From Psammoneis japonica (lineage: Eukaryota), in contig QPGO01000012.1 of NCBI GenBank assembly GCA_008632985.1, positions 558,001-622,000 on the forward strand: a DNA stretch of 64,000 bases, given 5' to 3'. Positions 2,911 through 35,303 of the stretch are shown here, one piece after another. Every line of letters starts with the position of its first letter. Position 1 is the stretch's first letter. The notes beneath the pieces are model-generated. The model had not been told where the DNA came from and did not search any database. It saw only the letters and a list, made by a program, of their open reading frames with translations. Made by a program: the position numbers and the translations under genes.

Positions 2911-5900
2911 AGAAGAGTGTGAGGAGGACGGTGACATTGTCATGGCGTTGATGCAAATGCCGTCGTTTTGAATTCAAGCAGAGAGAGGGAATCAAGGACA
3001 TCGAGTGTGACAGACCGCCCAAATGTGTGGGAAAACAAAGCAGGCTGTGCACAACACTGCCTTGCCAGTGATCCTGTTTGATGCTTTGGTTGTCCAAGGT
3101 CTGGCGCACCATGCTGCTGTTCTCTTTGAAGTCAACTTCGCGTGATTGTGGGAGGAGGTCGCTGCTGAAAGCTTCTAGAGAAAGCTTTGGCGGAGAACCC
3201 ATGCCAGCTGAAGACTTAGCGTCAGTTCACCCCCATGTCTTGCCAACTGCTGCAAAAATGCTTTCACAGTTAAACGTGAAAAATGAGACAAAACAACATG
3301 CCAGCCTCCACGATTCCAAAGCATTTTGATGGTTCCAGAGCAGGCACTTCTCCAATGCTTCGGCTGCTTCAAGTGTGCATGGATTGTCAGGAGAAATTGA
3401 CCAGCACTCCTCCAGGTTGTCCACACCAGGAAGAGCAGTAACAAAGACAGTAGAACCATCAATGTCTTCTGTGAGGAGAGTCACCCGTCTGTTCTGAGGG
3501 TGGCAAATCTGAACATCAGCTCCACTTGTGTCCAGCGGAGTGTTTCGGTGCTTGTGCAGAGCCGCATTGTTGCCCAACCTCGTCAACAGGGCTGGAGCAA
3601 TTTCATGTGTGTTCAGCACCAACTCCAATGGGATTCTGCGGCAGGGACATCCTTCAAACATGCAAATCGAACACCCGTTGGCAGGCCGTAAAGGCTTGAT
3701 TGCAAATGTCTGCATCGTCTTTCGGTGCTTGCCTCTCCCCCATCCAGTTCCACCAAAGTTCAGGTGATGTTGCAGATCTTTTGATGTTTGGTTGCCTGTT
3801 TTTTAATTGTTCTGGTCTCCATTGTCCAATCACATTGCATCATTTCCTTTGTCACTTTTTTTGTCCTTGTGCAATTCAGAACCCCAAATCCAAACTGGGC
3901 AGACAACAATCCACATTTGTTTTAACAATTTTTATGGTTCCCGTCCTGTTTTTTTGTTCTGTCTGTGCGCATAGAAACTAAACCCATCCATCCAAATGGC
4001 GCACCTCTCTCATCCACCCAAAACACAATGAGGACATCCTTTTTGAAAGTCACCAAAAAAGGCATCTCCCATCATTCCAAAGCATGCACCTTGTTTGGGC
4101 ATCATCTTCCATTTCAGCCACACTGACTGAGAAAAATTGGTGAGGCCCAAAAGTTTTTCTGGTGGGCTGTGCATCTGTCCACTGTCCACCATGGAGGAGG
4201 CCAGGGCCAACAATGATGGCACCACCAGCAACACTTTGGAGGCCATTCTCTTGTGGTCCTTTGCATGACTTCATCGACTGCAATGTTGCCGATGTTCCTT
4301 CAGGAATCCATCGGGGATCAGCGCTGGTGTCATGCTCTTGTTTCAACATGGATCTCAATGATGCAGCTGAAATTCCATGGTTGAATGACAAGGATTTCCT
4401 GACAAAGCAGGAGTGTCTTGCAAAGCCTTCTCATCCATGGTGGATCTCATTCCTGATGACCCCATTTTTCGGAACCACAACCCAAGAGGAGGCAGACCAG
4501 AACAGGAAATGGAGAGCCAGCTCATGGTCACATTGAAGGCTTTTGGCAGTGAAGGAAGTGAATCTGGTGCACATGCCCTCCACAATGAATTTGGAGCCAG
4601 AAGGGGAACCAGTTTGCATTCTTGCATGAAACATGTTGTGCATGCTTTGATGGGTCACCGCAATGAACATGTGCACTGGCCAGATGAGGCTGAGAGAAGA
4701 ATGACATCAAAGAGAGTGTTCAAAGAATTCGGTTTTCAAAATTGCATTGGCATCACAGATGGCACATGTTTGTTTCCATTGGCACTTAGACCACAAACTG
4801 TTGATGCACCTGACTGCAAAGGCCGGAAGTTTCTGCATTTGATTGGCTCCATTGCAGTGTGTGATGACAACCGATGCATCAAATTCTGCGAGGCTGGCTG
4901 GCCAGGCTGCGCACATGACAATTGAATCGTGTGGAATGCAAAAATGTGGAACAGCCCATTGGAGTGCTTTTCCAAACACCAACACATGCTGGATGACAGT
5001 GTGTTTGAAAACCACTGGTTTGTGGTGTCTGCTTTCACTCTTCACCATCCGGAGAGACCGTCAATGAGAACCACGCCTTGTTCAACAAAGCAATGTCATT
5101 GCTCAGAGTTTGTTCCAAACATTGTGCTGGCCTCTTAAAAGGGTGTCTCCCATGGCTGCAATTAATTTGTAAGACAGCAACATAAGACGAATGGATGTTA
5201 AAAGAAATCCTGTGTTTTTTGGGTGCATGTGTGATCCTGCACAACTTTCTTCTGTGGTTTGGTGATCGGGTGACTGACAATGCTTGGATCCAAAGTGAAG
5301 GTGACATTTCAGACATCAACAACTGCAACAGGAACAAGAAACAAGTGTGAAACCACCTTGAGAACAGAACACATGATGTCCCAAAGACTGGCCGAACTCT
5401 CGTCTTCATCGCTCATGACCGTTGACAGGTCCGGAATTTTCTTTGGCACATTTCCTTTTTTGTGCACCCTTTTTACTCCAGCTCCAAATGTGTGTCTGGC
5501 AGAGACTTTCAAAATTCCATCTCTTCCTTCTTTCCTGCCCAGCGGTCCTTTGTTGCCTGTGCCTCTGTGCCATCTGTTCCATCTTCATGTTGTGTCGGCT
5601 GGTTTCTTGCACGGCTTCCTTTCTGTTTGTGGCTTGGCTTTCCCAAGAAGGCAACCCGCTTTGGAACTTGGTTGTCCATGCACAGAGGACCACCTGGAGC
5701 TCATCATGTTTGTGTGCAGGCATGCTGACTGCCAAGGTCCCAGCATCACGCAAGCGCCCTGAGAGCTTCCGAGCCCAATGGATGGAGAAGCAAATTGAGC
5801 TTCTCCAAGCTCAGAGCATTCGGAGCTTCCTTCCGAGGAAAACCTTGGAGGACACAGATGGCAAAGGCACTTGCCAAAACTGTCCTGAGTGAGACGTCTT

Positions 5901-6150
5901 GGATGTCAGCACACGAGTTGTTGTCGTCGTGGTGCTTGGGGGTCTGCGAAATGCACAAACCATCGTGAAAAAAAACCGGGTTTAGAGAGTCGGGCAGGGC
6001 TTGGGCAAACAAAGAGATGTCATCTTCTGCAGGAGGTGTTGGGAATTCAAACTCTGGCAGGAAGGGCTGCACAATCTTGACAATGTTCGGGACATGGAAG
6101 GCACATTGGGCCAGCTGCTGACGGCTCTGAGACCAGCCCCCATCCCAGTT
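2911..6150. other. TpA- and CpG-depleted, TG/CA-rich block A (degenerate TE and gene relics)
   Basis: TA dinucleotides drop abruptly after ~2910 and return at 6151. Confidence 0.85.
4250..5400 (+). mobile_element. Degenerate PIF/Harbinger-type (DDE_Tnp_4) transposase
   Basis: NCIGITDGT, D(C)KGRK, GWPGCAHDN, LDDSVF and a downstream GLLKG..PWL-like motif, broken by stops and frameshifts. Confidence 0.75.
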
Positions 6151-8545: not shown

Positions 8546-9630
8546 CCCGCCGCCGCCATGTGAGATGCGAGAGCACGGGGTTGCCGTCTAGCAGTAGCTA
8601 GCAATCACTCTACCTGCTCTCTAAGAGAGAGTTAGTAGAGCCTACCGCATCGCCATTGTACCGGTGCCATAGAGGTTTTGGGTGCTGTCGGTGTTCAGTG
8701 TGCCGACCGAGTGCTGTTCACGAGACCCAGTCGACAAACAAAGGAAAAGAAAAAGAATGTAAACTCACAGAGTGTCTGCCGTTGTGCACTGGTCAAAATT
8801 CTTGCCCTGAAGTGCATGATGCTCATCGCTCATCGCAAACGCAGCATGTGCAACTGGTTTTCAACGGGCAGTCGACGTGTGTCAGATTGAGAAACTTCAA
8901 ATCGCACATTCCCGCCGGAACTGGCCCAACCATGTTCGTCGAGCTTAAGTCCAAGAGTTGGAGCTGGCTCAGCTGCAAGAGCTCCGTTAGAATGGTGCCA
9001 GTCATTTTTGCATTGGAGACATCAAAAACTTCCAGCTCACTTGGCTGGCCAATGCCTGTTGGAGTTGCACCCGTGAAATCGTTCAAGCTCACATCCCAGA
9101 CCTCCACATCCACAACACTGCTGATCTCGGTGAACAAAGTGCCTGTCAAAGAATTGTTGCGCACGGAAAATGCTTCCAGCTCCGTAAATGCAGGGGATGC
9201 GTTGAATTGATTCACAAGCCCAGACACCATGTTGTTGTTGAGTCGAAAGTTTCTTGCAGCAGAGGCGAGACCAAAGCTTTGAGGGAAGGTTCCACCAAAG
9301 GCGTCATCACTAAAGTCCAAATCGACTTTCAATGCCCACACCAGCACCCAAATAAAGTGACAGATGAGAACACATGCAACACGCCAAACAAAGCGCAAGA
9401 CACAAACTTGCGCAACTTTCGACCAACATCTGTGCCTAGAAAATCAATTGGACCAGAACCAATGCTGTCAAGAAGTGCACCCAGATCATCAAGTTCCGGA
9501 ATTTGGCCTGTCAGTGTGTTCCAGCTTACATCGACAGTCTCTGCGCAATTTGGCAGTTGACAATTCATTCAACCAGGCGCCATGAAGAAAGGGCAAATTG
9601 TTGCACACAATGCTCATCAACAAATCAACT

Positions 9631-9906
9631 TGACAGGATTTGAACAGGATTTGGGTGCGTGCGAAATGTCGCGCACTGTTTAGCCCACCGCGCACAGTTT
9701 TGTGTGCTTTGGTTCCGCGCGTTCGCGCGTGATGTAGTTTGCTTTCGAGCCACAAGGCTCACAAGAATGACAACAGCAGCCCGATTTTACCGACTTGCAC
9801 GTCTTTCGGCTCCTGCAACGGTCTCTGAGCGGAGACTCATCTGCCATTTAGACAGCAGCAAGGAGTTGTTGTTTGAATTCTTGCCATTTGCCTTCATTTT
9901 CTGTCA
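9631..9906 (+). repeat. 5' LTR
   Basis: About 94% identical (hand count ~16 differences) to 16474-16749. Confidence 0.95.
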
Positions 9907-10854
9907 GATTGACAGTCTTGCTCATTGTCAACCCATTGAGCAACCGCCATCATCGTCGTTGATTTACCGACGACGCCATCTCAATTCTGCGTGGACCTCC
10001 GCATGTGTTCTACGTACATCGGCAAGTCTGCGCGCATTCAATGCCAGGGCATCGGCAGGAAGTTAACGTCACCGTCAAGTCTCCTTACCGCTGGATGTCT
10101 GGATTGATTGTGCTGCCTTTGATCGCTGAAGACATGCATTCAACGGTCACATCCAAGTCTGTCCTTGATCCTCATCCCTTGAAACACCCATTCATCGGTT
10201 AACGGTCAAGAACCCCACACATTCAAGGATCTTCGTTGCTGAAGACATGTGTGCACACACACATCTTCACGGCCAAGAACTTGTGCCCACTCTTCGGACT
10301 GCGGTTTTGCTGCCACTCTACAAGCACACCGAGTCCATTGCACCTGATCTACCCCGGACTGCTGGTGCTCTGCAGATCTGCCAGGTCCACGAGGACAACT
10401 GTGAGAGCAAGCAGCCGTGATTGCAGCCTGCGTTGGGGCGAGGGTGCTTTCCCACATTTGTTCGTTCGTCCACAGCGCCTGACGCCTGCGTCAACTGGCC
10501 AGCCTGATCGGGAAATCCAACCAACACAAAACAAGAACGGTTCGGGGGTCTTGTCCACCTCTGGTCAGCTCACCTGCAGGGGTTTACAACCCGCCACTCC
10601 GCTCGTAAGCAACCCAAAGTGCCACTGGCTGTGGGTGCGGATGTGCCGGCACAACTCTACGGACCGGATGGGAAGTTTAGCACTCAACAACGAACGGGGT
10701 GGCAAAGCCCGGCGACTTCTGATTTTAAGGCAGTTCAAGATTTCAAGTCAAGTCCACTTCAAGTCAAGTCTGTTCTCACCCAAGTTTCAAGTCTACCTTC
10801 ACTGCCTTCGCTTCCCAACAAGAATTGCTTGTCCTGACACCACTTTTGTCTACC

Positions 10855-13800
10855 ATGGTTCTCACTCGTCAGCAACAAACCGATGGTTTCGAGCACGTTG
10901 TTGGAGCCGTGCTTGCCCAAGGTGCTGGGAGCCCTCTTCGTTTGGCTTTGACCCAAGACGGCACGGACTCGCATCAAGAACTGTTCACGTTCATGCCATC
11001 CCAAATCGACTCGCTTGAGTGCGACAACGGCACCAATGTGATCCCTTTGCCCCGCGGTTACAAGAACATGTTAGCAGCTCTAACCAGTCTGTGCATTGTC
11101 AAAGCACACGAAGGTCTTGACGTTGCCAATGACTCCTCGTTGTTCACGCATGACGAGTTCCTTGCCTGCCGCCTCAGCCCCGACTGCATGTCTTCTGTGT
11201 CCGTCGGCAGCTCACCCCTCGCACCTCCGCATGTCACCAACCCGACCAAGGCACGCGACCCGGTACGAGACTTCAAGCGAGGCATCAAGCGTGACCCCAC
11301 CGCTTTCACGGCTCTCAAATCTGACAAGCAGTGGCACACTTGGCACACCTCACTTGTGGCACAAGCCCATGCCCAAGACGTCGAGTGCACTCTAGACTCG
11401 TCGTACAAACCGACCAGCCCCGAAGACAAACTGCTCTTTGCTGAACAGCAAAAGCACATGTTCGCCATCTTCGAACACATTCTTCTCACTGACAAGGGCA
11501 AGGCTCTCATTCGCGAAAATGTTGGGTCTTCTGACGCTCAGACCGTCTGCCGCGCCTTGTCTGAGCATGCGCTCGCCTCCACCCGCGCATCTGTCGAGTC
11601 CTCCACCTTGCTCACGCACCTCACCACCGCACGTCTTGGTGATGGCACTTGGAAAGGTCCGACCCACGGGTTCATCCTTCATTGGCAAGATCAGTTGCGC
11701 AAGTGCGAGGCACTCATCCCGGCCAGTGACCACTTCTCTGAAGGACAGAAGCCCGTCATGCTCGAGAATGCCGCACACCCTGTCGAGGAACTCCGTGCTG
11801 TCAAGAACCAAGCTGATCAGCATCGTACGCAGAGTGGCAAGAGCCTCACATACGATCAACACTGTGGCTTGCTCCTCTCCGCGGCGGCTCAATGTGACAG
11901 TGCGTTTCAACCCAAGACGACACCTTGAGCTCCCCGACGTGCCACATGCGCACACGATGTCTGCTCCGAGGAACCGTCCGACAATGTGTTCTACGACATT
12001 GACAGTGACATTGACGTCCTTCAGGCCAATGCTGCCTGCACCCGTGGTCCCAGCCTCACCGGTGACCAATGGAAACGTCTCCCTCCCGACCACCAACGGA
12101 TTTGGGATTCGTTGCCCCATTCCTCCAAGGCGATCATCCTTGAGCATTCTCGTCCGCCTCCCCGCAACCCGCGAGCCAGCAACTGCCATGAGTCTGTCAC
12201 GGCCAACCTTCACGACCAATGCCTTGGGAGTGGCGGTGATGTCAACTTGTCCAACACGACTCCTGCTGACTCTGGTGACCCCGCTCCAAATGTGGGTGCC
12301 ACTTCGGATGATCCCATCCTGGCGCACCTCACCAAGCACAAGCCACTGCCACCCGGTGATCTGCAACGTCTGTTGTCTCCTGACCAAGCCCCCAACGCCA
12401 GTCGACCGGGGCCATCCACCGCTCCCTCTGCTCCGCCAGCTCCTGCCGATGACGTGGAACTTGATGGCCGCACTTGCCGCCACGTCAACAACCACAATGT
12501 CATTTGCTCTGCCTCTGCTCATCGCTCCACACGCACTGGTGCTCCAGTCGATCGTGGGGCCAACGGCGGCATTGCTGGCGACGACGTCCGCGTCATTGCA
12601 CGCACCTCTCGCCAAGTCGACGTTCAGGGCATTGATGACCACCAATTGGTGGACATCCCCATTGTCACCGCTGGTGCCGTCATTGAGACTCAGCGTGTTC
12701 CCGTCATTGCCATCCTCCATCAGCACGCATGCACGGGCAAGGGCAAGACCATTCATTCCTGCGGCCAGCTCGAATGGCACAAACAGGATGTCAACGATCG
12801 CTCTGTCAAGGTGCCCAATGGCTTGCAATGTGTTGCCACCCCTGATGGCTGTGTCATCCCCATTGACATCAAGGGCGGCCTGCCTTGTGTTGCTGTGCAA
12901 CCTCACACTGACGCCGAATGGGACACCCTGCCCCATGTCATCCTCACTGGTGATGACACATGGGATCCTTCCGTCCTTGATCACTCTGTCACTGACGACG
13001 ACCAGTGGCACGACGCGATCTCTGACCTGCAGGACGATCCCACTGCCAACCTGTTTGACGAATGCGGCAACTACCGTCACCGTGTCGTTGTCAACAAGGC
13101 CATCATGTCCGCCTCCTTGTCTGCTGATCACGCGTCCGTCCTTGATGACCACCTCATTCCGAATGACGACGTGTTCTGCGAGTGTCATCTACACGCGATT
13201 GACCCCAAGGACGTCGACGTCCCGCCCCCGGAGCGCACTGTGCAACCCAAGGACCCCCCCTTCGAGTCTCTTTGGCCTTGCTTTGGCTTCCCACCTGCCG
13301 ATGTGGTCCATCGCACTTTTGACTGCACCACGCAGCACGCCCGCATGCCCGCCGGTGCACACCTTAGGAAGGCCTGCAAATCACCCAACCCCGCCCTTAA
13401 TGTGCACCGCCGCAACGAGCCCATCGCCACTGACACAGTTTGTGCCGACACCCCGGCCGTCGACTCTGGTTGCACCAGCGCCCAACTGTTTGTTGGCACC
13501 GAGTCTGCCGTCACTGACGTCTACGGCACCAAGACGGACAAGGAGTTTGTCAACACACTCGAGGATCAGATCCGTGAGCGTGGTGCCCCATCCAAACTCA
13601 TAAAGCGACCGTGCTCAAGTTGAGATCAGCAACAAGGTGCTCGGGATTCTACGAGCCCTCTTCATCTCCAGCTGGCAAAGTGAGCCTCACCAGCAACACC
13701 AAAACTTTGCCGAGCGTCGACACCAGACCGTGAAGCGCATGGCGAACACTGTCATGGACCGTTTCGGTTCGCCTGCCCACACATGGCTGCTGGCGCTCAT

Positions 13801-16526
13801 GTGCGTGTGCTTCACACTCAACCACACAGCGTCCCCATGTCTCCACTGGCGCATGCCCCTCGAGACTCTCACTGGCTCCACCCCGGACATCAGCCCATTG
13901 CTTCGCTTTCACTGGTGGGAACCCGTGCACTTCCACCTTGATGACTCCGATTGGCCATCCGAATCCCGTGAGTTGCGTGGACGCTTTGTTGGCATTGCTG
14001 AGCACGTCGGCCACCAGATGACCTTCAAGATTCTCTCTGACGAGACTCAGAAGATCCTCCACCGGTCCAACGTACGCTCCGCCACCCACCGATCCTGCCG
14101 TTCGAAACCTGCGTCTTGATCCTCCTGATGGGGAGCCACCTGAACCCATCATCAAATCTCGCCATGACGACAACCCTGTCGATTCTCCTGATGGGGAGAT
14201 CAGGACACCCAAGATGCCAGTTTTCGATCCGCAAGACATCATCGGACGCACCTTCCTCATGCAGCCACAAGAGGATGGACAATGCCACAGAGCTCGCATC
14301 GTCAAGGCCGTCGAAGACCATGAATGGAAAGTGAACGGCAATCCCGAGCTCACTGAGTTCGTCTGCTCTGTCAACAACGACGAATGCGAGGAAGTCCTTG
14401 CCTGCAACGACATCATGAATCACATTGAGCAAGAAGACGAAGACACTGCTGTTTGGAAATTTCGATGAATCGTGTCACACGAAGGACCTCTGAAGCCTCA
14501 TGACCCAACCTGGAAAGGCTCAAGCTACAACATCATGCTTGAATGGGAAAGTGGGGAGATCACGTCCGAGCCTCTTGCCATCATCGCCAAGGACGACCCC
14601 GTCACCTGCGCCATCTATGCACGAGAGAACGGACTTCTCGACACTGATGGCTGGAAGCGGTTCCGCACCATCGCGAGGCGCCAGAAGAAGCCATTTCGCA
14701 TGGCCAACCAAGCCAAGCTTTGCTCCTTCCGCACTGCACCTTGCTGCAAGTGCGGATGCGAAGTTCCCCCGAACTGCAAACACGCCATGTCACTGGACGA
14801 ACGCAACGGCAACCGCAAATGGGGAGACACAACTAACCTTGAGATGGACCAACTCGAGGAATGCCAAGTCTTCCATGACTGCGGGCCCTTCGAGTCTTCC
14901 ACTCCTCCTGCGGGACACAAGAAGATCCGAGTGCACCCAGTGTACGACGTGAAACACGACGGTCGCCACAAGGCACAACTCGTGGCCGATGGGCACCTCA
15001 CGGACGTGCCTGTCGACAGTGTCTGCTCCGGAGCAGTCTCCCTCCGTGGCCTTCGGCTGATGATTTTCCTGGCCGAACTCAACGAGTTAGAGACATGGGC
15101 CACCGACATTGGCAATGCCTGCCTTGAAGCCACCACCAAGGAGAAGCTCTACATTGCAGCCGGACCCGAATTTGGCAAACTCGAAGGACACATTCTTGTC
15201 ATCCACAAGGCCCTGCATGGACTGCACAGCTCTGGTCTCCGCTGGCACGAGCGCTTCGCCGACTGCCCACGAGCTGAAGGATTCTTCCCCTGCTGCACCG
15301 AACCCGACATTTGGATGCGCAGGAATGGCGGCCACTGTGAATGCATTGCCGTTCATGTGGATGACCTCGCCATTGCTGTGAAGGACCCTCAATCTTTCGT
15401 CGATGCTCTCACGGAAAAGCACAAGTTCAAGCTCAAGGGTGCGGGACCCATTGAGTTCCATCTGGGTTGCGACTTTTCGCGGGATCCCGACGGAACCTTG
15501 TGCATGTCTCCGCGCAAGTACATCGAGCGCATGGTTGACAGCTGCGCCCGACTGTTTGGGGAGAAACCTGCCACCAACGCCCTGTCACCTCTGGAGAAGG
15601 GTGACCACCCCGAACTGGACACTGCCGAACTGCTGGGGCCCGATGGCATTCACAAGTTCCAGTCTCTTGTTGGTTCACTCCAGTGGGCAGTGTCCCTTGG
15701 TCGAATTGACATCACCACGGCCATCATGTCACTCTCTAGCTTCCGAGCTGCGCCCCATCAAGGCCACTTGGACCGTGCCAAACGTGTCTGTGGTTGCCTC
15801 TCCAAGATGCGACACGGTGCTCTCCGCGTTCGTACGGAAGAGCCCGACTGTTCGGATCTCCCTGCTCCGGCCTGTGAATGGATGCATTCCGTGTACGGCG
15901 AAGCAGAAGAGATGATCCCGAAGGATGCTCCACCGCCCCTTGGCAAGTTCGTCACTGCCACCCACTACGTCGATGCAAACTTGTGCCATTGCATGCTCAC
16001 CGGACGCTCTGTCATGGGAATGCTCCACTTCCTCAACAAATTCCCGGCTGATTGGTTCTCTGAGAAGCAAGCCACCGTGGAGACTGCGACCTGCGGGTCT
16101 GAATTTGTTGCCGCAAGGACTTGTGTCGAACAGGTTGTCGACCTGCGCATCACCCTGCGCTGCCTTGGCGTCCCGATCCGCAATGTCAGTCACATGTTCG
16201 GTGACAACAAGTCGGTTGTAGACAGTGCCACCATCCCGCACTCCAAGTTACACAAGCGACACACCGCACTGTCGTTCCACCGTGTGCGTGAGGCGATTGC
16301 CTCTGGTCACCTTGAGTTCCACTTCATCGAAGGCTCCCGCAACCCTGCTGACATTCTCAGCAAGCATTGGGGTTGCTCCCAAATCTGGGACCTTCTCCGC
16401 CCCCTCATGTTCTGGAACTTCATTCCATCCGAAGTCGAATCTGTTTCTGTGACTCCTCAAGCAAACTGGGGAGTGACAGGATTTGAACAGGATTTGGGTG
16501 TGCGCGAAATGTCGCGTGCTGTTTAG
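10855..16526 (+). pseudogene. Inactivated gag-pol polyprotein
   Basis: DFKRGIKRD (gag), VDRGANG (protease), EPHQQHQNFAER (integrase), HVDD (RT, from YVDD), NPADILSK (RNaseH). In-frame TGA at 11926 and 14466 (probably from CGA); frameshifts near 13600 and 14085. Confidence 0.9.
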
Positions 16527-16749
16527 CCCACCGTGCACAGTTTTGTGTGCTTTAGTTCCGCGCGTTCGCACGCAATGTAGTTTGCTTTCGAGCCACAAGG
16601 CTCACAAGAATAACAACAGCAGCCCGATTGCACTGACTTGCACGTCTTTCGGCTCCTGCAACGGTCTCTGAGCGGAGACTCATCTGCCATTTAGACAGCA
16701 GCAAGGAGTTGTTGTTTGAATTCTTGCCATTTGCCTTCAATTTCCATCA
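16474..16749 (+). repeat. 3' LTR preceded by a short purine tract (ggggag)
   Basis: Matches the 5' LTR and is followed by TSD CAACT. Confidence 0.95.
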
Positions 16750-18474
16750 CAACTTGCCAAGTGACAACAAGTCTTGCAGCAACGTTGGCGGGAGGGCCCC
16801 CGACAGCATGTTGTTTCTGAAACTCACCTCCACAAGCATGTCAAGCATGCCTGTTTCGAATGGGACTCTGCCCGTCATGCCAAAGCCATCCAGTTGCAAT
16901 CTGCTCACTCTTCCGTTGCCAAGGCAGCTCACGCCATCCCAATTGCAGTGATCATCAAAAGGAAATCTCATCCACCTCGAAGCCTCGGTGTTCCACTGAT
17001 GTCCACTCGTTGAAATGAAAAACACTGTCAATGCACACCTGTCACATGTGGTTGCTGCACTTTTGACAACAGGTTTGAATTCATTTGCATTCACAAGCCA
17101 CCAAACAGCTTGAACTTTTGGGTCACATGCATTTGACAGCAACCCTTGCATTCGATTGGTGAGATTAAGATCATTCAACAAGTCTTGAAGTTCTTGTTCT
17201 TTCTCTTGTCCAACAATGTCAACCAAAGTCTGGTTGTTCCCTGGAGGTGCGAAACAATGGCATTGGACCAAGAGATCCTCCTGGGATGCATCTTGGCAGA
17301 CAGCATCGTCGCCCATTAAAGATTTTGAGGACGATGTGTCTTTCCTAGATGATGTCAACACCACGGCGGTGATGACACCCGCTGCGATCACGGCAACTGC
17401 CACAATCAGCAACAGAAGGTTTCGCAAATGCTTTTGTTTGATGGCCACGGCTTGTGCAATGGGATGGTGGCTTTCACCGCCGGTGATCTCTTCTTCCCGT
17501 TGCACAAGAACAGCACTCACCATCACCCCAATGTCATCACTGCCGCCTCCGGCATCCAAATTGTTCCCACCACCAATGTCATCAATGACTTCATTTTCTG
17601 GTTCCAATGGTCCCACGTGAACTGCTCCCACATTTGTCCTTCCTTCCAAAGAATCCATGTCACAGGGGAAATGATGCTCCACCTCATTGGATGTCATTTG
17701 TCTCGATGGGTCGCCAACTGCTGATTCGCAGTTGTTTGAAGTGGCAGCTGTGCCACCCGAACAAACTGGAGAAAAACGCTCCAAACCCATGTTGTGATTC
17801 TCAGATTTGCATCCATGAAACAGTTTGCTTTCTTTTTGGACTCGATCGGGGTTTTAGTGTGCAAGAATCTCATCACTGTCTGGTTTGGAAACATCTTCTA
17901 TTTTGCCTTCATAGACGAAAGGTGTTGTTGCTGTTGTTGCTTCGCTAGAGTGTTGCTGCATCTCTGAAGTTAGAGGAGCCGTTTTCAAGTTGGCAACAGG
18001 AACCTCTTTTAAAGAATGGCACAGCTGCATTGGACAATTCGAGCTTGCCTCATCCTCGCGATCTTCCCCATGCCTTCCAGCACGGCCACTGGATCGTCTG
18101 GACATTTTGTTTCTTCGCTCTTCTCTGTTGCTTGAACTCAACACAATTCCAACAACTGAGGTTGAATGTGTGGCGGGAAACAATCAATCCGGAACTCTGG
18201 CCACCATTTTAGAGGGAATCAAATGTGTTGTTATTCTGATGAGCAGTGGGGGTTCTTGAAAACACATGTTGTGCGAAGTTTGATGCATTGCATTGGAAAG
18301 CATGGGACTAAACATCGCGTTCTTGGTCTTGTTTTTTTTATTTTTTCGGCGATGCGCCGCGGCGGCGTTCACAAAACGTGCATTTGAAAATGGTTTGCAG
18401 CAGTCAAGCGTTCTGTTGGGTCTCCCTTTTTCTGCACGGGCAGATGCGCACACTTCCCTGACAGAAAGTCCCAT

Positions 18475-18595
18475 TGCAACACACAGCCACCAACAAGAGC
18501 CAATGTATCATGGCGATGTGTTGCAGCCTTTAAATGTCACAAAGGGTGTGACAAAAACAACCTTTTGTCTGCATGCATGCTGCACCATCCTTCTT
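18475..18595 (+). repeat. ~115-bp dispersed repeat; two inverted copies at 53253-53362 and 53590-53700
   Basis: Shared core gcagccttta(a/g)atgtcacaaagggtgtgacaaaa..accttttgtctgcatgcatgctgca with a GTCAC-N7-GTGAC hairpin. Confidence 0.8.
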
Positions 18596-18754
18596 TGTCG
18601 TTTTCAAACACTCAGCCCCAACTTGAAAGACACTTGCACTCTGCTCATCAATGTGTGATGCAATGTTGATGAAAAGAAATGGCAAGCTTGCAGTGGCTCA
18701 TTCTGGTGGCTCACAGTGAGGCACTGCTGATTCTGCTGCGGGCTCTCCACAGCC

Positions 18755-19177
18755 AATGCAGTCCACGAGTGAAAAACAGGTGGGCTGCATGACTGCACAA
18801 TCATTGCCCTCTGACACTTGTTGCTGCCTTCTTGTCTCTTGTGGCTGATGCCCCCCCCAGCAAAGCTCTCTGGTTGGCTGTGGCAAAAGCCATGAGAAGA
18901 TGGGCACCTTGTCCATGAATGTGTGCCAACAGGAGAGACCGAGAGATGCAGCCCAAAGTGTGGAGAATGCAGTCCACGAGTGAAAAACAGGTGGGCTGCA
19001 TGACTGCACAATCATTGCCCTCTGACACTTGTTGCTGCCTTCTTGTCTCTTGTGGCTGATGCCCCCCCCCAGCAAAGCTCTCTGGTTGGCTGTGGCAAAA
19101 GCTGCAAGAAGATGGGCACCTTGTCCATGAACGTGTGCCACCAGGAGAGACAGAGAGATGCAGCCCAAAGTGTGGAG
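18755..19177 (+). repeat. Tandem duplication of a ~211-bp unit
   Basis: 18755-18965 and 18966-19177 are nearly identical. Confidence 0.95.
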
Positions 19178-22100
19178 AGTCTCTTGTTGTTTCTCTCTGC
19201 CATGTCTTTTCTGTCTTCTTGCTGCACTTAAAAAAAGCATTTTGTGACAGCACCACATCTTTGGCTTGGCTGTTGATGCAACAGACCATGAGAAACTGGG
19301 GCACGCAAAACATTTTCCATTTTCCTGTCAAAGCCATGCACAACTCAGTGTCTTCATCCCAGCACACACCCTCTGAAACATTTCAAAAGAAAGTGTCACA
19401 TGTGGGCATCATGTCACATGGGCTTTTTGCTTTTGCATGTGTGCAAAAGACAAGCTCCAAACACTGGTGTGTCATGCAGTGATCCATTCACTGACTTGTT
19501 CCTAATCTGTTGCACAGCTCTTGTGAGTTTCCACTCTTGGTTGAAAATTTCTGAGCTCCAATCATTGTCAAGAATCTGATTTCTCTCAACCAAAAAAAAT
19601 TGAGCTCATCTGGCACAATCAACAAGAGCCAACAGCTGCAAATAAAGTGCATGAACTCATGTGATGCTTTTTTGCCCAGCTTGGTTTTGTGTCCCATGGG
19701 ATTCCCCAAAATTCATTGCGCCAAGGGGTTGTCACCTTTTGCTGCACAAGTCTCAAAAAATTACCTTGAATGTCACTTTGCTGCTTGTGTGCTGCAGACA
19801 TGAGCATGGGTTTGTGTTGGGAAATTCCCATGCTTCCCCTTCAAAATTTGTCATGTGCACTCCTGCAGATGTTGCAATTGTCAGCCACCACACATCCTTT
19901 GCAGCCACATTGCGCCCACCACATCAACTGCCTTTTTAAAAGCTTGGAGCATTGCTCACTGACAAGGACACAGCTGCTGTGGCTTCTCTGCAGCTGCTGC
20001 ATCTTTTTGTTGCCATGTTCATGCCATGTGTTTTTTCTGATGCCACACAGCTGGTGCTGCATGTTTGTCATTGTGATCTGGATGGCAGCCGCATGTTCTC
20101 ATTTGGACAATCCTCCACACATCAGCCAAACATCACCACAGCTGCCTCTTCAACAGTCATGCCATCAGTTGATGTGCAGCCAGCATGTTTTTTCATGTGA
20201 TCCACCACACTGCTGCATCTTTTCATTGCCACATTGATGCCACATGATGTGTTTTGTTTTGATGCCATGCAGCTGGCATGTTTTTTGTTGTGATCTGCAC
20301 CATGACTCTGTCTTTTCACTTGGCAGATGCTCACCTGCATCTTCTTCACTTGGTTCCATGCTCCCTTGGCTTTTTTGTTCATGCCTGGGGTTGTTGTTTT
20401 GCTTTTCATGTAAAATGCATTCTTGGCATGACTGGTGGCAATGAGCAGGGTGATGATCCCAGGATTGGTGTTGACAACAATGAGAAGCTGTGTGGCTTGC
20501 GATCACCACAAGCATCTGGGACAACAATTTTGCACATGAGGAGGCAGCCAGCTGGGCATGCAGCTGGCACAAGCAGTCATGCAAAGGGCCCAATGCAAGG
20601 AAAGCTGCTGCCCATCTCTCTCTAAGATCAAGAAAAGATGTGTGCTGAGACCTGCAGTGCCAAGATCACCAACAGAACTGTGCCAAGTGGTGTCATGGGC
20701 TGCACAGCTCTTTGCAAGAACATGTGGCAGCCAAAGATGAGCTTGTCTGTGCCACGCCAAAGATGCAGATGCCAAGGCCAATGAAGCATCAGAAGCTGCT
20801 TCATTGGTCAAGTGGCAGCACAGCAGCAGTGCTGATTGATCAACCCAACCACAGATCCAAACATCTGTCATGGCCTGCTCAGTCAGTTCTGGTGGCACCA
20901 GCACCACTTCAAGCCTGCCATGCTTGCTGCAGCCATCAATCTTTGTCACTTCTGTGGGCTGCCCTTTGCCTTGCACACAACTGCCTGTTTTTCAAGCAAG
21001 CACACTTGTCACCACCTGCAGTCCCCCTGACAACAAGAAAGTTGGAGATGACCCACTTGGCACCTGAGTCATCTGAGGTGCATCAACGACAATGAGAGGG
21101 TCATTTTTGCTGAATCAAAGACATTTTGGTCTCTTTTGGGGGGGGGGGGCAATGGGGGCTGCAATTAAGAAGCTGCCCCCATTTGATGCATTGCGACTTG
21201 CCACAAACACCCCACCAGTGGCATTTTGGAAATTCGCAGTTGCCAGGAGGAGCACATGGCCAAAGAAGGGGGGGAAAGAATGCACCCTGCATCACATGAA
21301 TTTTTTCTGGGTCACAATCATCAGGAGCTTGATTTGCAAAAGGATCCAGTTGATGCACTCTTCTTTGATGGGTTCTCTAACATTCAGAAAGTGGAGCAAG
21401 AGATGCCAGAGGTTGAGTTTCCCCAAGCTTCCTGTCTGCATGGAGCCAAGCATTGCACTGTGCTGCTCTTCCATGATGCAACTGAGACAAAGCCCATGCA
21501 GGCAATTTTAATCATGTGTTTGTTTTTTCTTCTTTGAAGAAGGCATTTCTCTCACTCATCTGCTGCCCTTTTTACCTGAATTGTGCAAGACTGTGATGAT
21601 GTTGTGAGCAAAACAGCTTCATCATGTGTTTGGCTTTTGCTCAAGTCATGCTGCTCATGCCACATTTGTGAGCCAGTCAAAGCATGTCTGCCACAGCACA
21701 GATGCATGTCTCCTCAAAGGTGCAGATGCTGGAATGACGCCTTTTCTTTTGCCATGCACTGCACCATGTGCCTCCAAAGTGTTTTTCTTGCCAAAGTTCA
21801 CACTTCTCAGTGGACCAGTCTGAGAGAGAAATTTAAAAAAAGAACCAGACCAATTGCATGGTCACAGCTCCACAAATGGAAACTTCCAGCAAGCCATTTG
21901 TCACTTGTTGTGCTGTGCATTCCCAGTGCTCCTGGTCCTGTGCTGTGCAAATTCCAACCTTCTTGGCATGGGTGAACCGTGCTGCACCTCACCAACACCT
22001 CGCCAACAGAACCACCAAGGTCCTCAAGCAATCAACTGACAGTCTCAATGATGAGACTTGTTTTCCTCTCCAAGCTGCAGTCAGTGCAGCTGACATTGAA

Positions 22101-23088
22101 GATGCAACTGATGGCATCTTGCATGACAAGACAATGTCTTCTGACAAAACTGATGATGCTGATGATTTTTTTAGGCCAAAGATGACAATGATCGTTCCAA
22201 GTTGGGTGACAATTTGCCCGGTGCAGTCAACCTGGCAACAATGTTGAGAGGCAGGCTCAGAAGAAGTGGTGAGAAAAGTTGAAGAGCAAGTTTGACAAAG
22301 TTGTTTGGCTTGTTTGTGTGCAGCCAGAGGTCATCGACAATGCAGAGCTGCCAGCCAGGGCCTGACATTGACAACAAAAACTCTTGTTTGTGGCACAAAA
22401 AAGGCTTCCTCCCACAGCACACATTGCATGGCACCTCCACACCTTTTCAATCCCATGCCACAAAATGAAGTCCAAATCCTTGAAAGCTCAAGCAATGAGA
22501 AACAGTTGCACTTTTGTCCCACAGCAAAAAGGTTGAAACAGAGCAACCACTGTCACTGTCTTCAATGAAAATGGACACTCAGACAACTTTGCTCAAACAC
22601 TGTCATGCCAAGCATTTGTGGCGTGTTTCTGTGGCATCTGTCAAAAAGCAGTTGTGCCATCAAAGACCCACACATCATGGTTTCTGAATGTGTGGACTGC
22701 ACAAATGAAGAAGAAGAAGAAAAGGCAAAGGCTCAAAAGAGTGGAAGTGACAATGCCAGTCCCAAGAAGCATCACAATGTTGTAAAAAATGTGACAGCAA
22801 AACCAGCTGCAAACTGCATGATGGGATGCTTTCATGATGAAGGCCAAAGGCTGATTGAATGCATTGAATGTGTTTGCCAGCAAAAGTTGTCACTGTTGGC
22901 GGGCCATCATTTGTGTCAGTCAGATTATTTTGCTGTGTGGTGCAGCATAATGATGCATTGCCACAGGTTAGATTGGTGGCACTCGTTGCACCCCTTGGTG
23001 GTGAGACATTGGAAACTTTTTGACAACATGTCAATGAACAAATGATGTGTTAATTGTTGACAACATGTTGACAAAAATGAGTGATTTA

Positions 23089-23445
23089 GACAACAGTTTG
23101 CTCAACCATCACATCTTTTAGATTTGGGATGATGGTCAACAAATCTTTGATGAATGAGTTGGTTGGACAACAGTTTGCTCAACCATCACATGTCAGATTT
23201 GGGACAATTGTCAACAACACAGTGCAAACAAATTTGTGGCATGGACAACAGTTTGCCAAGCCATCACATCTTAGATTCGGTGCAATGGTCAACAACATTT
23301 TGATGAACAAGTGGTTCAGATGACAGTTTGCTCAACCATCGCATCTTAGATTTGGGACAATTGTCAACAACACAGTGCAAACAAATTTGTGGCATCAACA
23401 ACAGTTTGCTCAACCATCACATCTCAGATTTGAAACAATTGTCAA
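23089..23445 (+). repeat. Tandem repeat, ~5 copies of a ~78-bp unit
   Basis: Recurrent acagtttgctcaaccatcacatc..agatttgg..caattgtcaaca. Confidence 0.85.
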
Positions 23446-23637
23446 TGTCAAATTGAGTGTGTGATGCAAACAATGGCTCAGCACACCCTGCTGAGGGGTG
23501 TTGCACAGACAGACTTCACAATTTTTGGCACATTTGCAAAAATGGACCTGCTGCATTGTGGGCAAAGACTTCATGATCGTGGCTGAATAACGACAAGCCC
23601 ATAACCCAAACTCGACATTTGACTTCGAGTCAAAGTA

Positions 23638-23755
23638 AGCTAAATGAATAGTGTAAAACGTTAAGTGTCATTTCCACTTCGACACAGAGACAGCTATATG
23701 ATTAGTGCAAATCGTTAAGTGTCATTTACACTTCGACACAAAGAAAGCTAAATGC
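23638..23755 (+). repeat. Two ~55-bp tandem copies inside a TpA-retaining island
   Basis: gcta.atga.tagtg.aaa.cgttaagtgtcattt.cacttcgacaca occurs twice. Confidence 0.8.
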
Positions 23756-26700
23756 TTAACGGCAGTGGTCAGAATTCAAATTCTGAGCAATACAGAAATG
23801 TCAATGATGAATAAGGATTTTAGATCCCTTCTGCCCTTAATGTCATTATTCCAATGCCACTAATGAATACACAAATGAATTTGTATTCCATCCTTTTCGT
23901 AAACTTTGATCTATCGGCATTTTCAATACGAGTGCGCGATGACAACAATAAAGCATGCTTGTATGTGTCATGGTCATAAGCTGTAAGGCATACCGTCACA
24001 TTTGGATTGAACTCGGGGATGTTGGTGTCGAAAGTAGCCATTTGTTTGACATTCGTGATTTTTCATCGCCCACAAATTGGGATTTCAACTGAGTCGAGTT
24101 GATGTTGGACGTGTGCAAAGCACTGCGTTTGATGAAACAATTGAGGGCTCTGGGCTTATGGCATTTTATGCCATGGAGACTTAAAATGGTGAATGGGTTG
24201 ACAATCAAGCCAGTGATCGGGTTTGCCAACATTTCCAAAAATGTGACAACAAAAATTGCATCACTCAACAACCAACAACCCCTCAAGAGAAAGAAACAAG
24301 AAAAGTGATTTCTCTTTGCACTTGAATTAAAAGAGACAACAATGCACAACAAATGTTCAAGAAGGACAAGAAGCTCTTGAATGCATGAAACAAGAAGAGA
24401 GTCAATGAATCACTCTTGTTTCGAACCTCTTGCCCTGTTCTCTCCTCCATGGTGGTTGGTTGAAAGGTTGGTGGTGGTTTTTTGTGAGATTTGCAGCTTG
24501 ATGCATGTTGATGCATGAACAAATGGCCCATGTGTGGTGTCACCTTTGGAATGTGCCACTTGTGGAGCTTGGGTGGACAGCTCTCTGTGCTCAAGCTTTG
24601 TCCGCCAAATGCTCCGTCAAAAAGTCCAGATGCTGCCCCATCCCACCCAACCATTGAAAAAAAAACAGTTCTTGCAAAATGCTGTTGCCTGTTTCCCTCT
24701 TCCTCTGCAGAGCAGCTCTCTTGGTGACAGTGCCACCCACACACCAGACTGTGCTCAAGAATGCTTTCCAACCTGCCAGCCAAGACACTCAGCTCGGGGC
24801 TGTGTGGGCTCGAATCTCTCTCAAGACAAGCTGCTGAGCATGTTTCTGGCACTGGCGGCAATGCTGAGCCCTCCTTCCTGTTTGACTTCCCAGGGGTGTG
24901 CCCAGACTGCCTGCATGCTGGCCCAACCACAAGAGTTGCTGTTTTGCCAGTTTTGTCAGCAGGATGTGCCAAGGCTGCTCTGGCCATGTGTGCCTGGCTG
25001 GCACCACAATGCAAAGACAGGTGCGACAGCACTTTCTGCTGTCAGCAAAGAGTGTGAGCTGGCTGGACTGCCCAACCCCACACTTCACAGTTCCTTGGCA
25101 GTCACTCCAAATCAAGTGCCAGCTTGGGACCAACTGCACCTGGCTGGTTGCAATGCAAAGACAGCTGTGACAGCAATTTGTGACAACAAGAGAGTGTGAG
25201 CTGGCTGGGCTCCTGACCCCAGCACAGCCACTTCACAGCCCCTCAGCACTGGCTCCCAATCAAATGCCAACTTGGTGCCAACAGCCACAAAGCCATTGTT
25301 GCAGATCTCTGCACCTGGCCCCTCACACAACATGTGCAGCCTTTACAAAATGGGCCCCTGGCCAACTGCAGACTCCTCATGGCTTGCAACAAGCCACCAC
25401 AACACAGAGCATTGTGGGGTGAATGCAGCACAGCTTGAGCAAGCAAGCCATGCTGGAAGCACTGAGAGCTGGCTGCTGTCCTGGAGCTCCATTCAAAGCT
25501 GAGCTGGGCTGCTTGGCTCCTTGGTGGGTGGCACATGCTTGCTTGGCATCACATTGTTGCCAAGCAGAGCCACATGGCATGTGCCCACCATTTGTGCCTG
25601 CAACAGTGATCCCTGGCCACAAAAAAGCCAACAAAAAGTTGAGCCTGCTTTTGTGGTTGAAGGGTGAAGAAATTGTGAGTGAGGTTGGGTTCAAGAGTTT
25701 GTTGGCAATGCCAAGTGGGCAGCCAAAGAGAGGCACCAAAAATGACTGTGTGAAGTGTCTCTCACTCATTTCTCAAGAGGAGCTTGTGCTCATGATGCGG
25801 GGTCTGAAGCAAGCACCAGTCAAGAGGACAACAATTCTTTCCCTCTCTGTTCCACCCAAAACACAGCCTTTGAGTCAATGTGGTGCTCCTTCAACAATTG
25901 ATGCACACACTGGGAGGAGCAGCTGTGGAGCCAGGGCAGCAGGCCTGGCAGGGCTTGGCTCACAACCAAGCTGGGCTTCTCAGCTTGGCAGCACACACTC
26001 AGAGTCACATTGTTGCCCTCCTGCAGCTGCAATGTGCCCCACTCTTTGCACCTGCAGCAACCACCCTGGACCAAAAGAAGCCAGTGCAACTCTGGCCCTG
26101 GTTGCATGGTCAAATTGTGTGTGTGTTCAATTGTCAGAATCTCCCCTCCTTTTTTCCCTTTTCCTTTAAACCGGCCATGAACATGAAAAAATTGCTGCAT
26201 TGTGTGCCCCTGCATCATTTATGACACCTGCAGAAGAGGTTTCTGCCTGAGGCAGAAAGAGCAGCACATCATGCAGGTTGACACAAACTAATGACAATTG
26301 CCAAAATTGCAAATGCCACACTGAAAATGTGAAAATCCCAAAGTGGCACTAAAAAGTGGCACTTGGCACTCAGCAGGCCACCATGTCCCTTCCTTCCAGA
26401 GGAATTTCACCCTCCAATTGTTGCCACAAATGCCATCATGGGTTTGGTCCATGCAATGTCCTTGAATTGTCACCACTTGCCATTGACAAATGCCCTGTGG
26501 GTGACTCCATTTCTGGAATGAATGGCACAGCCATTCACAAGGGCTTGCATGGCATGCAGCAGAAGATGCAAAATTGCAAGCCTGACCAGCCTTGCTGTGA
26601 GCTCTGGCACAACCATGCTTGTCATTGTGGAGAGGAACCATGTGACAACCTTTGGCTTTGTCCAACTTGTCAATGTGGTTGCTGAGCTGCTGTCAGACCA

Positions 26701-26775
26701 TCAATGGTTCTTCCCGTTTCAGGGCACAGTTGACAGGGACAAGAAGGCCACACATGGACAACAGCTGGCTGCAGC

Positions 26776-27715
26776 TCATGGTCTTGAGATGGCCCTGTCC
26801 AACCAAGACTTTGCTGCCAACAACTGCAGCATGAACTTTTCAGCAGTTTGGGGGGCATCATGTGTGCCTGTTGTTGCAGACGCCAACCTGTGCAATGCCG
26901 CAGTCCTTGAAGATCCACGTCTCATCCAAATTGAGCTTTCTGTTGTTGTCTGAATCTCCCGAAACCAGGTCAGTGATCGGCTGTCTTCTGCAGCAACATT
27001 GGAAAGTTCAAAGTTGCCTCTGTTTGTCACTGTGTGCTTCCACGTGCCGTTCTTCCCCTTGTCGATGTCCAATCCATCATCTCCATTGGTCACTGTGTCA
27101 ATCAAGATCAATGCATTCACGCCGCAGTGTGATGTCGGGTCGGATGCGTCTGCCTCTTGTCCATTGGACAGGGCCGACGTCGATCCAGTGTTGTTGAACA
27201 CTCCCTCATCGGCGGTGCCGCAGGCCTCATGCACCCACATTTCAGTCGGATCCAACTTTCCGTCCCTGTTTGAATGAGCAATGAGGGATTGGAATGCTCC
27301 AGAACTTGAGCTGCCAACCACAGTCGAACTCGTTGACCAGCAGACAGACTCGCAATCAGCCGGAGAGCTGCATTTCTTGTCAGTCCGAAATTGCCCAGAT
27401 GCTGTCGAGCCTGTGTTTCTGTAAGTTGGTGGCCAAGATGGCTCATTGCCCAGATTGGTGATGGCACAAGTCCAGGCAATGGGCTCTCCAACATCAATGT
27501 TGGGCCCGTCTTGGCCGTTCGTCACTGTGTCAATCCCGGTGGATGCACTCATGCCACAGCAAGAAGTGGGGTCGGAATCGTCCACTTTAATGCCATTCGC
27601 TGTGCCCTCAGTTGATCCGGTGTTGTTGTAGATGCCGACCTGTGCAATGCCGTAGTCCTCGAAGATCCACGTCTCATCCAAATCGAGCTTTCCGTCGTTG
27701 TCTGAATCTCCCGAA
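26776..27715 (-). pseudogene. Truncated relic of a repetitive Ig-like surface-protein gene (DUF11/DUF7507-like repeats)
   Basis: Repeated GDSDNDGKLD.DETWIF / DTVTNG.DG / W.(Y->C/H)..TN.GN motifs; the 5' end is cut at the 27717 repeat. Confidence 0.55.
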
Positions 27716-34846: not shown

Positions 34847-35080
34847 GCAGAGGAGCGGTGCCGATTGTCATGAGCACCTCCCATGATGGTCCCGCGGTTG
34901 TGGCGCTGCGATCTTTTTTTGTGGTTGCTGTTCGTGCAGATGATGAGGAGTCGCGCAGAGCCGCGCATTCCTGCACAGCACATGGAATTTCAAATCTCTG
35001 GAGCTCGTGGTGTCCAACTGCTTCTTCGCGCGCGCTCGCACTCCCCCGAAGGTCTCCTCATCATGCCGCACCGTAGGCCA

Positions 35081-35303
35081 TCCTCATAGACTCTCGCGGA
35101 AGTCAGACGGACGGTTTGTTAAGAGGCCTCCGGAATCCCCGTGTGTTTCTACATGCGCAAAAAACTTTTCTACAGAGAATTCTACACGAAACCACTCCCA
35201 GCTTGGGAGACACGAAACAACACACCAGGAGGGCATGGCAACAAATCGCCTGCATGCGACCCTGGTGCATCGTCCGTCTTGCTTCCGCGAGAGTCCATGA
35301 GGA
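35081..35303. mobile_element. MITE-like element with ~33-bp terminal inverted repeats
   Basis: tcctcatagactctcgcggaagtcagacggacg (35081-35113) pairs with the reverse complement of 35271-35303. Confidence 0.7.

Follow-up and report, generated by a model that had tools for sequence, protein, structure and literature searches.

Evidence for TpA-directed hypermutation of a recently inserted Copia retrotransposon in a probable diatom

How can a retrotransposon lose most of the conserved tyrosines of its reverse transcriptase and still keep both a long open reading frame (ORF) and abundant CpG? The question is raised by a 64-kb stretch of contig QPGO01000012.1 (positions 558,001 to 622,000, forward strand; hereafter "the window", numbered from its first letter), which carries a 7.1-kb Ty1/Copia-type long terminal repeat (LTR) retrotransposon on the plus strand at window positions 9631–16749. 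An original prediction had proposed that the reverse transcriptase (RT) of this element was killed by systematic replacement of Tyr by Cys or His while CpG is still abundant, and that TpA loss is faster than, and separable from, CpG deamination and acts soon after insertion. We consider it highly probable that a recently inserted Copia element has here undergone TpA-specific hypermutation after integration, with TpA in double-stranded DNA converted to TpG or CpA, presumably by an activity resembling a host defense. The host is probably a diatom. The sequence comparisons described below establish the mutational signature, its dinucleotide specificity, its strand symmetry, its action after integration, and its precedence over CpG decay.

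Tyrosine and TpA loss in the element

The open 685-codon frame at 14469–16526 (plus strand) aligns with 120 homologues at 53–67% identity and contains an RVT_2 reverse-transcriptase domain at 14907–15542 (Pfam PF07727, E = 3.9e-21, residues 147–358); its conserved C-terminal part we take to be RNase H, from its position in Copia polyproteins. Eight motifs read in this frame (VDSVCSGAVS, IGNACLEA, HKALHGL, AVHVDD, ETATCGSEF, LRCLG, SHMFGDN, and HWGCSQ) are all found where the original prediction had placed them, and in all eight the Cys or His faces Tyr in 71–100% of the aligned homologues (117–120 per column); at the seven motif columns listed, the window's own residue occurs in 0–1 homologues. 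At 15354–15356 (plus strand), a CAT codon (His) in the motif that now reads HVDD replaces a Tyr found in 98% of the 120 homologues; the active-site Tyr of the RT would thus be among the residues lost by TpA conversion. Amino acid composition is shifted in the same way, with 1.0% Tyr in the 685-codon frame versus 3.7–5.0% in 29 homologues and 4.2% Cys versus 0.8–1.6%, and the content of Phe, Asn, Lys, and Ile is little changed. At the 363 columns conserved in at least 80% of homologues, 16 of 20 Tyr are changed (12 to Cys, 2 to His, 1 to Trp, 1 to Phe), compared with 23 of 343 other residues. When conserved residues over the integrase–RT–RNase H part were instead defined by tblastn votes from up to 120 homologues, substitutions were counted at 24 of 29 Tyr (15 to Cys, 5 to His, 3 to Phe, 1 to Trp), compared with 46 of 488 others (Fisher P = 2e-18). 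In the N-terminal part of the polyprotein, the 14 conserved Tyr have become Cys (7), His (4), or Phe (1), with 2 retained. Because TAY (Y, pyrimidine) is alone among amino acid codons in always holding TA, conversion of TpA would change Tyr codons to TGY (Cys) or CAY (His) along the whole polyprotein. CGN-Arg codons have been lost at 4 of 36 positions, all to TGC, CAA, CAC, or CAT.

The same selectivity is seen at the DNA level. The observed/expected ratio (o/e) of TpA is 0.15, and CpG stands at 0.82 for the ORF and at 0.84 for the internal region, in agreement with the claim that CpG is still abundant. In the RT regions of 80 related loci taken from metagenomes, TA o/e is 0.31–1.11 (median 0.725), CG o/e 0.02–1.27, Tyr content 2.7–5.7%, and Cys content 0.5–3.1%; the element lies outside the range of all 80 for TA o/e, Tyr, and Cys, and Cys or His at the diagnostic positions is not a feature shared with intact relatives, which carry Tyr. 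In codon-threaded DNA alignments, TA in an intact relative faces TA in the window in 5–11% of cases and TG or CA in 49–68%, whereas the corresponding figures among the intact relatives themselves are 42% and 24%; CG faces CG in 37–49% of cases in the window and in 40% in these controls.

In a leave-one-out analysis of 16 intact relatives, with a consensus-TA site defined as TA in at least 6 of 16 references, the element retains 10% of consensus-TA sites versus 47–75% in the 16 controls, and 62% of consensus-CG sites versus 37–67% (i.e., inside the control range), so that CpG loss does not equal or exceed TpA loss. Over the whole polyprotein (consensus TA in at least 12 of 34 intact references), the element has TA at 12, TG at 43, and CA at 42 of the 128 consensus-TA sites and a different reading at the remaining 31, which makes 85 of the 116 altered sites TG or CA. 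The 119 consensus-CG sites read CG at 84, TG at 13, and CA at 7. The difference in retention between TA (12 of 128) and CG (84 of 119) is significant (Fisher P = 2e-24) and bears out the idea that TpA is lost the faster of the two. As estimated from these alignments, TpA loss appears to be ∼80–90% complete and excess CpG loss at most ∼10–17%.

The two losses are also separable in both directions. The element has lost TpA and kept CpG, and five relatives from other samples (L005, L009, L029, L063, and L067) show the opposite, with 0–18% of CpG kept and TpA kept at control level. Elsewhere, the usual fate of relatives thus seems to be decay of CpG with no editing of TpA, while in this genome TpA loss comes first. 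One further metagenome contig of 2561 bases (L077) has, at its positions 5–1975, a TA o/e of 0.31, 2.7% Tyr, and 22% of reference TA kept versus ∼42% in controls, and may come from a second host with the same process.

The persistence of a long open frame in a damaged gene is explained by the same bias. TAA and TAG together occur at 3.9–4.6 per kb in the element versus 11–15 per kb in genic DNA, and since TAA and TAG have been removed and no stop can be created by a TpA change, both the open 685-codon frame and long overlapping wrong-frame ORFs are accounted for. TpA conversion would destroy TAA and TAG in all frames, and a dead gene would in this way keep a long open frame. Wrong-frame ORFs are found in all six frames between 10200 and 16750 (e.g., 735 amino acids at 11396–13603 on the plus strand and 598 amino acids at 11392–13188 on the minus strand). 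We considered the 735-residue ORF as a real gene and rejected it, as a homologue search among longer proteins came back empty; the true frame across this region is that of 11929–13623, and the ORF owes its length in the wrong frame to the loss of stop codons.

Strand symmetry, sequence context, and timing

At the 128 consensus-TA sites, the two strands have been hit equally (43 TG versus 42 CA), and no strand-coordinated clusters were found among these sites (41 runs versus 43.5 expected, P = 0.33). Equal strands and interspersed outcomes argue against editing of RNA or of single-stranded cDNA. The outcome depends on the preceding base: TG:CA is 27:9 when the T follows a pyrimidine and 16:33 when it follows a purine (P = 1.6e-4), and in contexts in which the strands can be distinguished, the A of TAY has taken 29 of 40 hits (P = 0.006). 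An A in 5'-TAY-3' thus appears to be hit ∼3 times more often than an A in 5'-TAR-3' (R, purine). For Tyr codons alone the preceding-base trend goes in the right direction and is not significant; it is significant when all consensus-TA sites are used. The Tyr codon, TAY, places the favored A on the sense strand, which accounts for the excess of Cys over His among the Tyr-codon outcomes in the element (22 versus 9). In the TpA-depleted 500-bp bins of the window, the TpA that remains is scarcest in ATAT, ATAC, and GTAC (0.02–0.06 of the rate in normal bins) and most frequent in TTAA and CTAA (∼0.4 of that rate).

Timing can be read from the LTR pair, two 276-bp plus-strand copies at 9631–9906 (5' LTR, with TG...CA ends) and 16474–16749 (3' LTR) defined by direct repeat and alignment. 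The 5' LTR has a TA o/e of 0.25 and a CG o/e of 1.07. LTRs are identical at the moment of integration. Now, the two copies differ at 16 of 276 positions, i.e., they are 94.2% identical, matching the ∼94% given previously, and 14 of the 16 differences are exchanges among TA, CG, CA, and TG. There are five single differences of CG type, three single differences of TA type, three CA-versus-TG double differences, and two others, both transversions. With 15 shared CG sites and five single CG differences, only ∼0.2 CA/TG doubles of CpG origin would be expected, and the three doubles are therefore best read as TpA sites hit independently in both LTRs. Under a simple model, ∼0.59 of TpA per LTR has been converted versus 0.125 of CpG, and the TpA:CpG rate ratio is ∼7 from the LTRs and 10–15 from the coding region. 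Because the LTRs started out identical and now differ mainly at TA, CG, CA, and TG, the process must have acted on DNA after integration. That it acted soon after insertion holds in relative terms only: the LTRs show just two differences outside the four dinucleotides, yet ∼59% of their TpA has been converted.

Sibling copies give a similar picture. In four public runs (X1–X4, from a single sample and a single study), the retrotransposon family, compared over window positions 9562–16867, has a summed contig depth of 55,000–160,000 versus ∼35 in the flanks, and the copies in X1 differ from each other almost only by transitions (419 transition versus 55 transversion places). No RNA run is listed among those containing the sequence, which has no bearing on whether the family is expressed. 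Of the 483 places at which the window varies from its siblings, 40 were displayed; at 18 of these, TA in sibling copies (12–100% of depth) corresponds to CA or TG in the window, and at 13, CG in siblings corresponds to TG or CA.

Competing explanations and known systems

The mechanism that we propose is a conversion of TpA to TpG or CpA, i.e., A:T to G:C transitions on either strand after integration, that would have removed ∼80–90% of the ancestral TpA from the element. A methylation-type CpG decay would act as a second, ∼7–15-fold slower process, just begun in the element and complete in older repeats nearby. The first process would be a host function directed against repetitive DNA, for which the leading candidate is a polynucleotide deaminase that attacks adenine in DNA. 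Enzymes of the ADAT/TadA type edit A34 of tRNA, which is always preceded by U33.

ADAR and APOBEC marks in animal retroelements arise by editing before integration, and an ADAR-like enzyme acting on element RNA, or a deaminase acting on cDNA, could have produced an edited copy that then integrated. Like the changes seen here, those marks are deaminase-type clusters of transitions that cripple retroelements; ADARs favor a U before the edited A (bioRxiv 10.64898/2026.01.13.699255, Discussion, according to the available text), the 22 to 9 ratio of Cys to His at Tyr codons resembles a sense-strand A-to-G bias, and the family is abundant enough to have passed through many rounds of copying. However, ADAR and APOBEC act on RNA or cDNA, leaving strand-specific clusters in one direction and identical LTRs, whereas in this element the hits lie on both strands, TG and CA outcomes are intermingled without runs, and the LTRs have diverged, mainly at TA, CA, TG, and CG sites. 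The Cys bias is accounted for by sequence context, and the signature is shared by the non-LTR flanks and by old, unrecognizable repeats. ADAR/APOBEC-type editing was rejected on these grounds, and pre-integration editing of any kind is in our estimation very unlikely. A closer competitor keeps the timing and changes the chemistry: the thymine of TpA may be oxidized by an enzyme or otherwise modified in silenced chromatin (to a base of the 5-hydroxymethyluracil or 5-formyluracil type) and mispair with G, giving T-to-C changes. The symmetric signature cannot tell which base of TpA is attacked, the preference for TAY can equally be read as RTA on the thymine strand, 5-hydroxymethyluracil is enriched at TpA in dinoflagellates, and oxidized thymines mispair with G. 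On the other hand, the authors of the preprint just cited, which describes a similar signature in Bigelowiella natans, favor adenine deamination in its available text, also without proof; we regard the thymine route as unlikely, albeit as the most serious of the alternatives.

Two further explanations would do away with the process altogether. If a modified base at TpA (as 5-methylcytosine at CpG) were misread in repeats during base calling or assembly, the real element could be intact, and it fits this idea that the best run contains just 0.49 of the element's 31-mers and that several displayed places lack any public-run contig carrying the window's allele. Both TpA-poor flanks, however, have exact counterparts in contigs of ordinary depth (∼35; no differences over 659 and 681 bases), and sibling copies from these runs do show TA at the sites in question, which means that TA is readable there. 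Rare variants of a family of such depth are dropped from Logan contigs; this explains the missing alleles and makes their absence inside the element uninformative. An older copy in the window shows the stops and the Arg-to-Cys/His/Gln decay typical of real pseudogenes. An artifact is therefore highly improbable. We give even less credence to host selection or codon adaptation against TpA/UpA, or to GC-biased gene conversion between copies. It is true that the window's host genes are lowish in TpA as well (o/e ∼0.45–0.8), but the changes wreck invariant residues of the element's own enzyme, affect only A:T sites of the TpA type (hence the near-constant content of Phe, Asn, Lys, and Ile), and extend to the non-coding LTRs and leader, and GC-biased gene conversion would lack dinucleotide specificity.

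Some observations weigh against conversion of TpA in double-stranded DNA after integration, or limit how far it can be taken. In RTAY contexts, where the strands are equivalent, CA outnumbers TG (28 versus 14, P = 0.04), for which the TAY rule offers no explanation. The TpA-poor zone begins ∼880 bp to the left of the 5' LTR, and the targeting is thus not strictly bounded by the element. Several of the 40 displayed places (of 483 in total) show no contig with the window's own allele; the interior alleles of this copy accordingly rest on the assembly itself, the flanks alone being matched by contigs, and the public runs may derive from the very sample that was assembled. The ancestral states are majority votes of relatives at 58–73% protein identity rather than those of a parent copy. 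It should also be noted that the support comes from sequence comparison centered on one 64-kb window.

The closest known system is that described by Mettrop et al. (bioRxiv 10.64898/2026.01.13.699255), who report that giant-virus and virophage DNA integrated in B. natans undergoes hypermutation restricted to TpA. According to the available text of the preprint, new mutations in mutation-accumulation lines arise only at TpA, to TpG or CpA, at ∼1000 times background, and an ADAT2-like DNA adenine deaminase is proposed. The likeness is close: as here, TpA alone is changed, to TpG or CpA on either strand, with TpA depletion and a gain of CpA and TpG; and only foreign or selfish DNA is affected, next to host DNA that mutates normally (here, 84 TpA-poor versus 29 normal bins). 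In B. natans, RT and DDE Pfam families are also enriched among the TpA-poor coding sequences. The host there, however, is a chlorarachniophyte (Rhizaria), and it is mainly two viral insertions, still rich in TpA (Rho 0.45), that are targeted, with 124 TpA-poor clusters genome-wide, whereas here a high-copy LTR retrotransposon is near saturation and two thirds of the window is affected. The rate in B. natans is a de novo measurement; the present data yield a ratio, with ∼0.59 of TpA converted per LTR versus two non-YpR differences in 276 bp. The available text of the preprint does not mention CpG, context beyond TpA, or diatoms. In a full-text literature search, the TpA-specific form was found described once, in this 2026 preprint, and nothing was found in diatoms; two diatom transposon papers contain no mention of TpA, dinucleotides, repeat-induced point mutation (RIP), or deamination. 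Papers on mutation in Prasinoderma (PMC11884799) and on histones in P. tricornutum (PMC4504042) proved irrelevant to the signature. The element is probably a new and far more saturated case of TpA hypermutation, and the first in a diatom.

RIP in ascomycete fungi is likewise a dinucleotide-specific transition hypermutation that inactivates repeats after integration and skews their composition, but it runs in the opposite direction, from CpA to TpA, enriching TpA, lowering G+C content, and creating stops. Here, TpA is erased, G+C content is up (57% in the element versus ∼48% in flanks and relatives), and TpA changes create no stops. RIP, the mark of which is C-to-T change at CpA with gain of TpA and loss of G+C, was rejected as the process. 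CpG methylation of diatom LTR elements has been reported (Maumus et al., 2009; PMC2806351, in the portion available), and decay of methylated CpG has the same end products, TpG and CpA, and is active on the same repeats of the window. Its target is CG rather than TA, its pace here is lower by a factor of 7–15, and relatives from other samples display it on its own. CpG-type changes account for the four Arg changes and one stop codon (TGA at 14466) in the element, and for 13 of 18 Arg positions in the older copy. With a CpG o/e of 0.84, 84 of 119 CG sites kept, and 4 of 36 CGN-Arg codons lost, methyl-CpG decay was rejected as the main inactivating process of the element; as a main cause it fits the older copy at 44866–49112 and not the element at 9631–16749. 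As to affiliation, the CoDi lineages of diatom Ty1/Copia elements are, in the accessible part of the description, defined by RT phylogeny against named CoDi1–7 references (PMC2806351), and the element resembles them in its Copia-type RT (RVT_2), its probable diatom host, and its many aquatic-metagenome relatives; the CoDi label used in the original prediction is a putative one.

Anatomy of the element, its surroundings, and wider meaning

The features expected of a Copia element are present, i.e., paired TG...CA LTRs, an RVT_2 RT, and a 5-bp target-site duplication, CAACT, read in the flanks at 9626–9630 (left copy) and, immediately after the 3' LTR, at 16750–16754 (right copy). All features of the element lie on the plus strand. 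Full-length relatives are 1890–2070 amino acids long, and the alignment to them covers 10855–13602, 13604–14083, and 14082–16439. By tblastn, 10855–13602 matches residues 1–939 of relative P0143 in one segment and is by position the gag/protease/integrase side of the polyprotein; this upstream 2.7 kb, where a Copia element would be expected to encode integrase, aligns with the N-terminal 939 residues of full-length relatives. A Pfam search of the window and of three intact relatives did not find integrase, protease, or gag families. Tyr loss, although confirmed, is not the sole lesion of this gene, contrary to what the original prediction implied: there are two in-frame TGA stops and two 1-nt frameshifts. 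The first stop, at 11926–11928, lies within the N-terminal part. At 13603 the tblastn frame changes, with ∼1 surplus base compared with sibling copies (1 base shorter at 13602/13603), and the middle part of the polyprotein follows in a second frame at 13604–14083 (P0143 residues 940–1096). The frame changes again at 14083–14090, where siblings are 1 base shorter at 14083–14088 (again ∼1 surplus base). At the position of the second stop, 14466–14468, 61 of 99 homologues have Arg; a former CGA codon and a CpG-type change are thereby indicated.

The depletion of TpA extends over much of the window. Of its 128 bins of 500 bp, 84 have a TA o/e below 0.3 and 29 normal bins hold ordinary genes. CpG is low in 50 of the 84 TpA-poor bins, intermediate in 15, and normal in 19, 15 of which lie in the element; none of the 128 bins combines low CpG with normal TpA. 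The four low-TpA, normal-CpG bins outside the element (18001–18500, 35001–35500, 42001–42500, and 61501–62000) may be other young insertions or fragments. At 44866–49112 on the minus strand lies an older, truncated relative of the same superfamily with one recognizable LTR (blastn, 65–79% identity), in which TA o/e is 0.06, CG o/e 0.14, and CA o/e 2.09, and in which 19 of 21 Tyr and 16 of 18 Arg are changed, 13 of the latter to Cys, His, or Gln. This copy provides a late-stage comparison in which both TpA and CpG are gone. Older repeats in the window have a TpA o/e of 0.03–0.08. The tracts at 3000–6000, 17000–27000, 35000–39500, and 42500–56500 consist of complex sequence and have almost no TA, a strong excess of CA and TG, and low CG over much of their length. 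In a Pfam scan of 104 ORFs from the old TpA/CpG-poor tracts and four from the 5' half of the element, no match rose above threshold, and two sub-threshold matches, LRR_1 and DUF7507, were seen.

The TpA-poor zone around the element spans 8750–9630 on the left and continues to the right over 16750–17853, with flanks at single-copy depth in the runs. Minus-strand ORFs in the flanks have weak similarity to leucine-rich repeats (E = 8e-5 and 4e-5), for the ORF at 16750–17853 (minus strand) a single weak match over 11% of the query. The flanks would be either an older hypermutated pseudogene or repeat that hosts the insertion, or neighboring DNA into which the process has leaked. Also in TpA-poor DNA is a tandem duplication with a unit of ∼211 bp at 18755–19178, seen as two direct-repeat families that are 94–100% identical. 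The host genes of the window are long and intron-free, and include a 1412-residue ORF, an NADPH oxidase (NOX)-like reductase, a GPR1/FUN34 transporter, and an RNA-dependent RNA polymerase with a chromodomain; one ORF carries a DUF6824 domain (E = 1.4e-10), whose Atlas clusters are commonest in Bacillariophyta (scores 0.82–0.85, at the level of a lead). The probable diatom origin is based on this domain and on the long genes free of introns; a Protein Atlas query with a host transporter carried no signal for any taxon, and a literature search for DUF6824 found no paper. B. natans is an unlikely source, given the intron-free genes, the diatom-typical domain, and the depletion of two thirds of the bins. 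In the polymerase ORF, at 62199–63998 on the minus strand and cut off by the end of the window, the RNA-dependent RNA polymerase match has E = 1.6e-27 and the chromodomain match E = 1.5e-6; such a fusion appears unusual and would link RNA silencing to chromatin.

Erasure of one dinucleotide in selfish DNA is a kind of genome defense known in detail only from fungal RIP. If the host is a diatom, the process would extend to a second lineage of eukaryotes, which includes genetic model species and in which the enzyme should therefore be findable, and it would be able to approach saturation, reshaping most of the repeat fraction of a genome. Since TpA loss precedes CpG decay and is independent of it, LTR divergence would overestimate insertion age several-fold in such genomes (of the 16 differences, two are clock-like). 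Dead elements that keep long open frames in all six frames are a trap for gene prediction, and replacement of Tyr by Cys or His in transposon proteins offers a protein-level marker with which other genomes can be scanned. We tentatively suggest, as a proposal almost as credible as its negation, that diatoms, or this lineage of them, have a RIP-like defense of opposite polarity, in which an enzyme with a preference for TAY edits TpA in the double-stranded DNA of new repeats, within <1% of other LTR divergence and before, and independently of, the decay of methylated CpG, and by which most of the repeat fraction is rewritten. If this is true, a comparison of diatoms that have the signature with diatoms that lack it could reveal the enzyme, and, together with the findings in Bigelowiella, TpA editing would be an old or recurrent defense of the SAR (stramenopile, alveolate, and rhizarian) supergroup.

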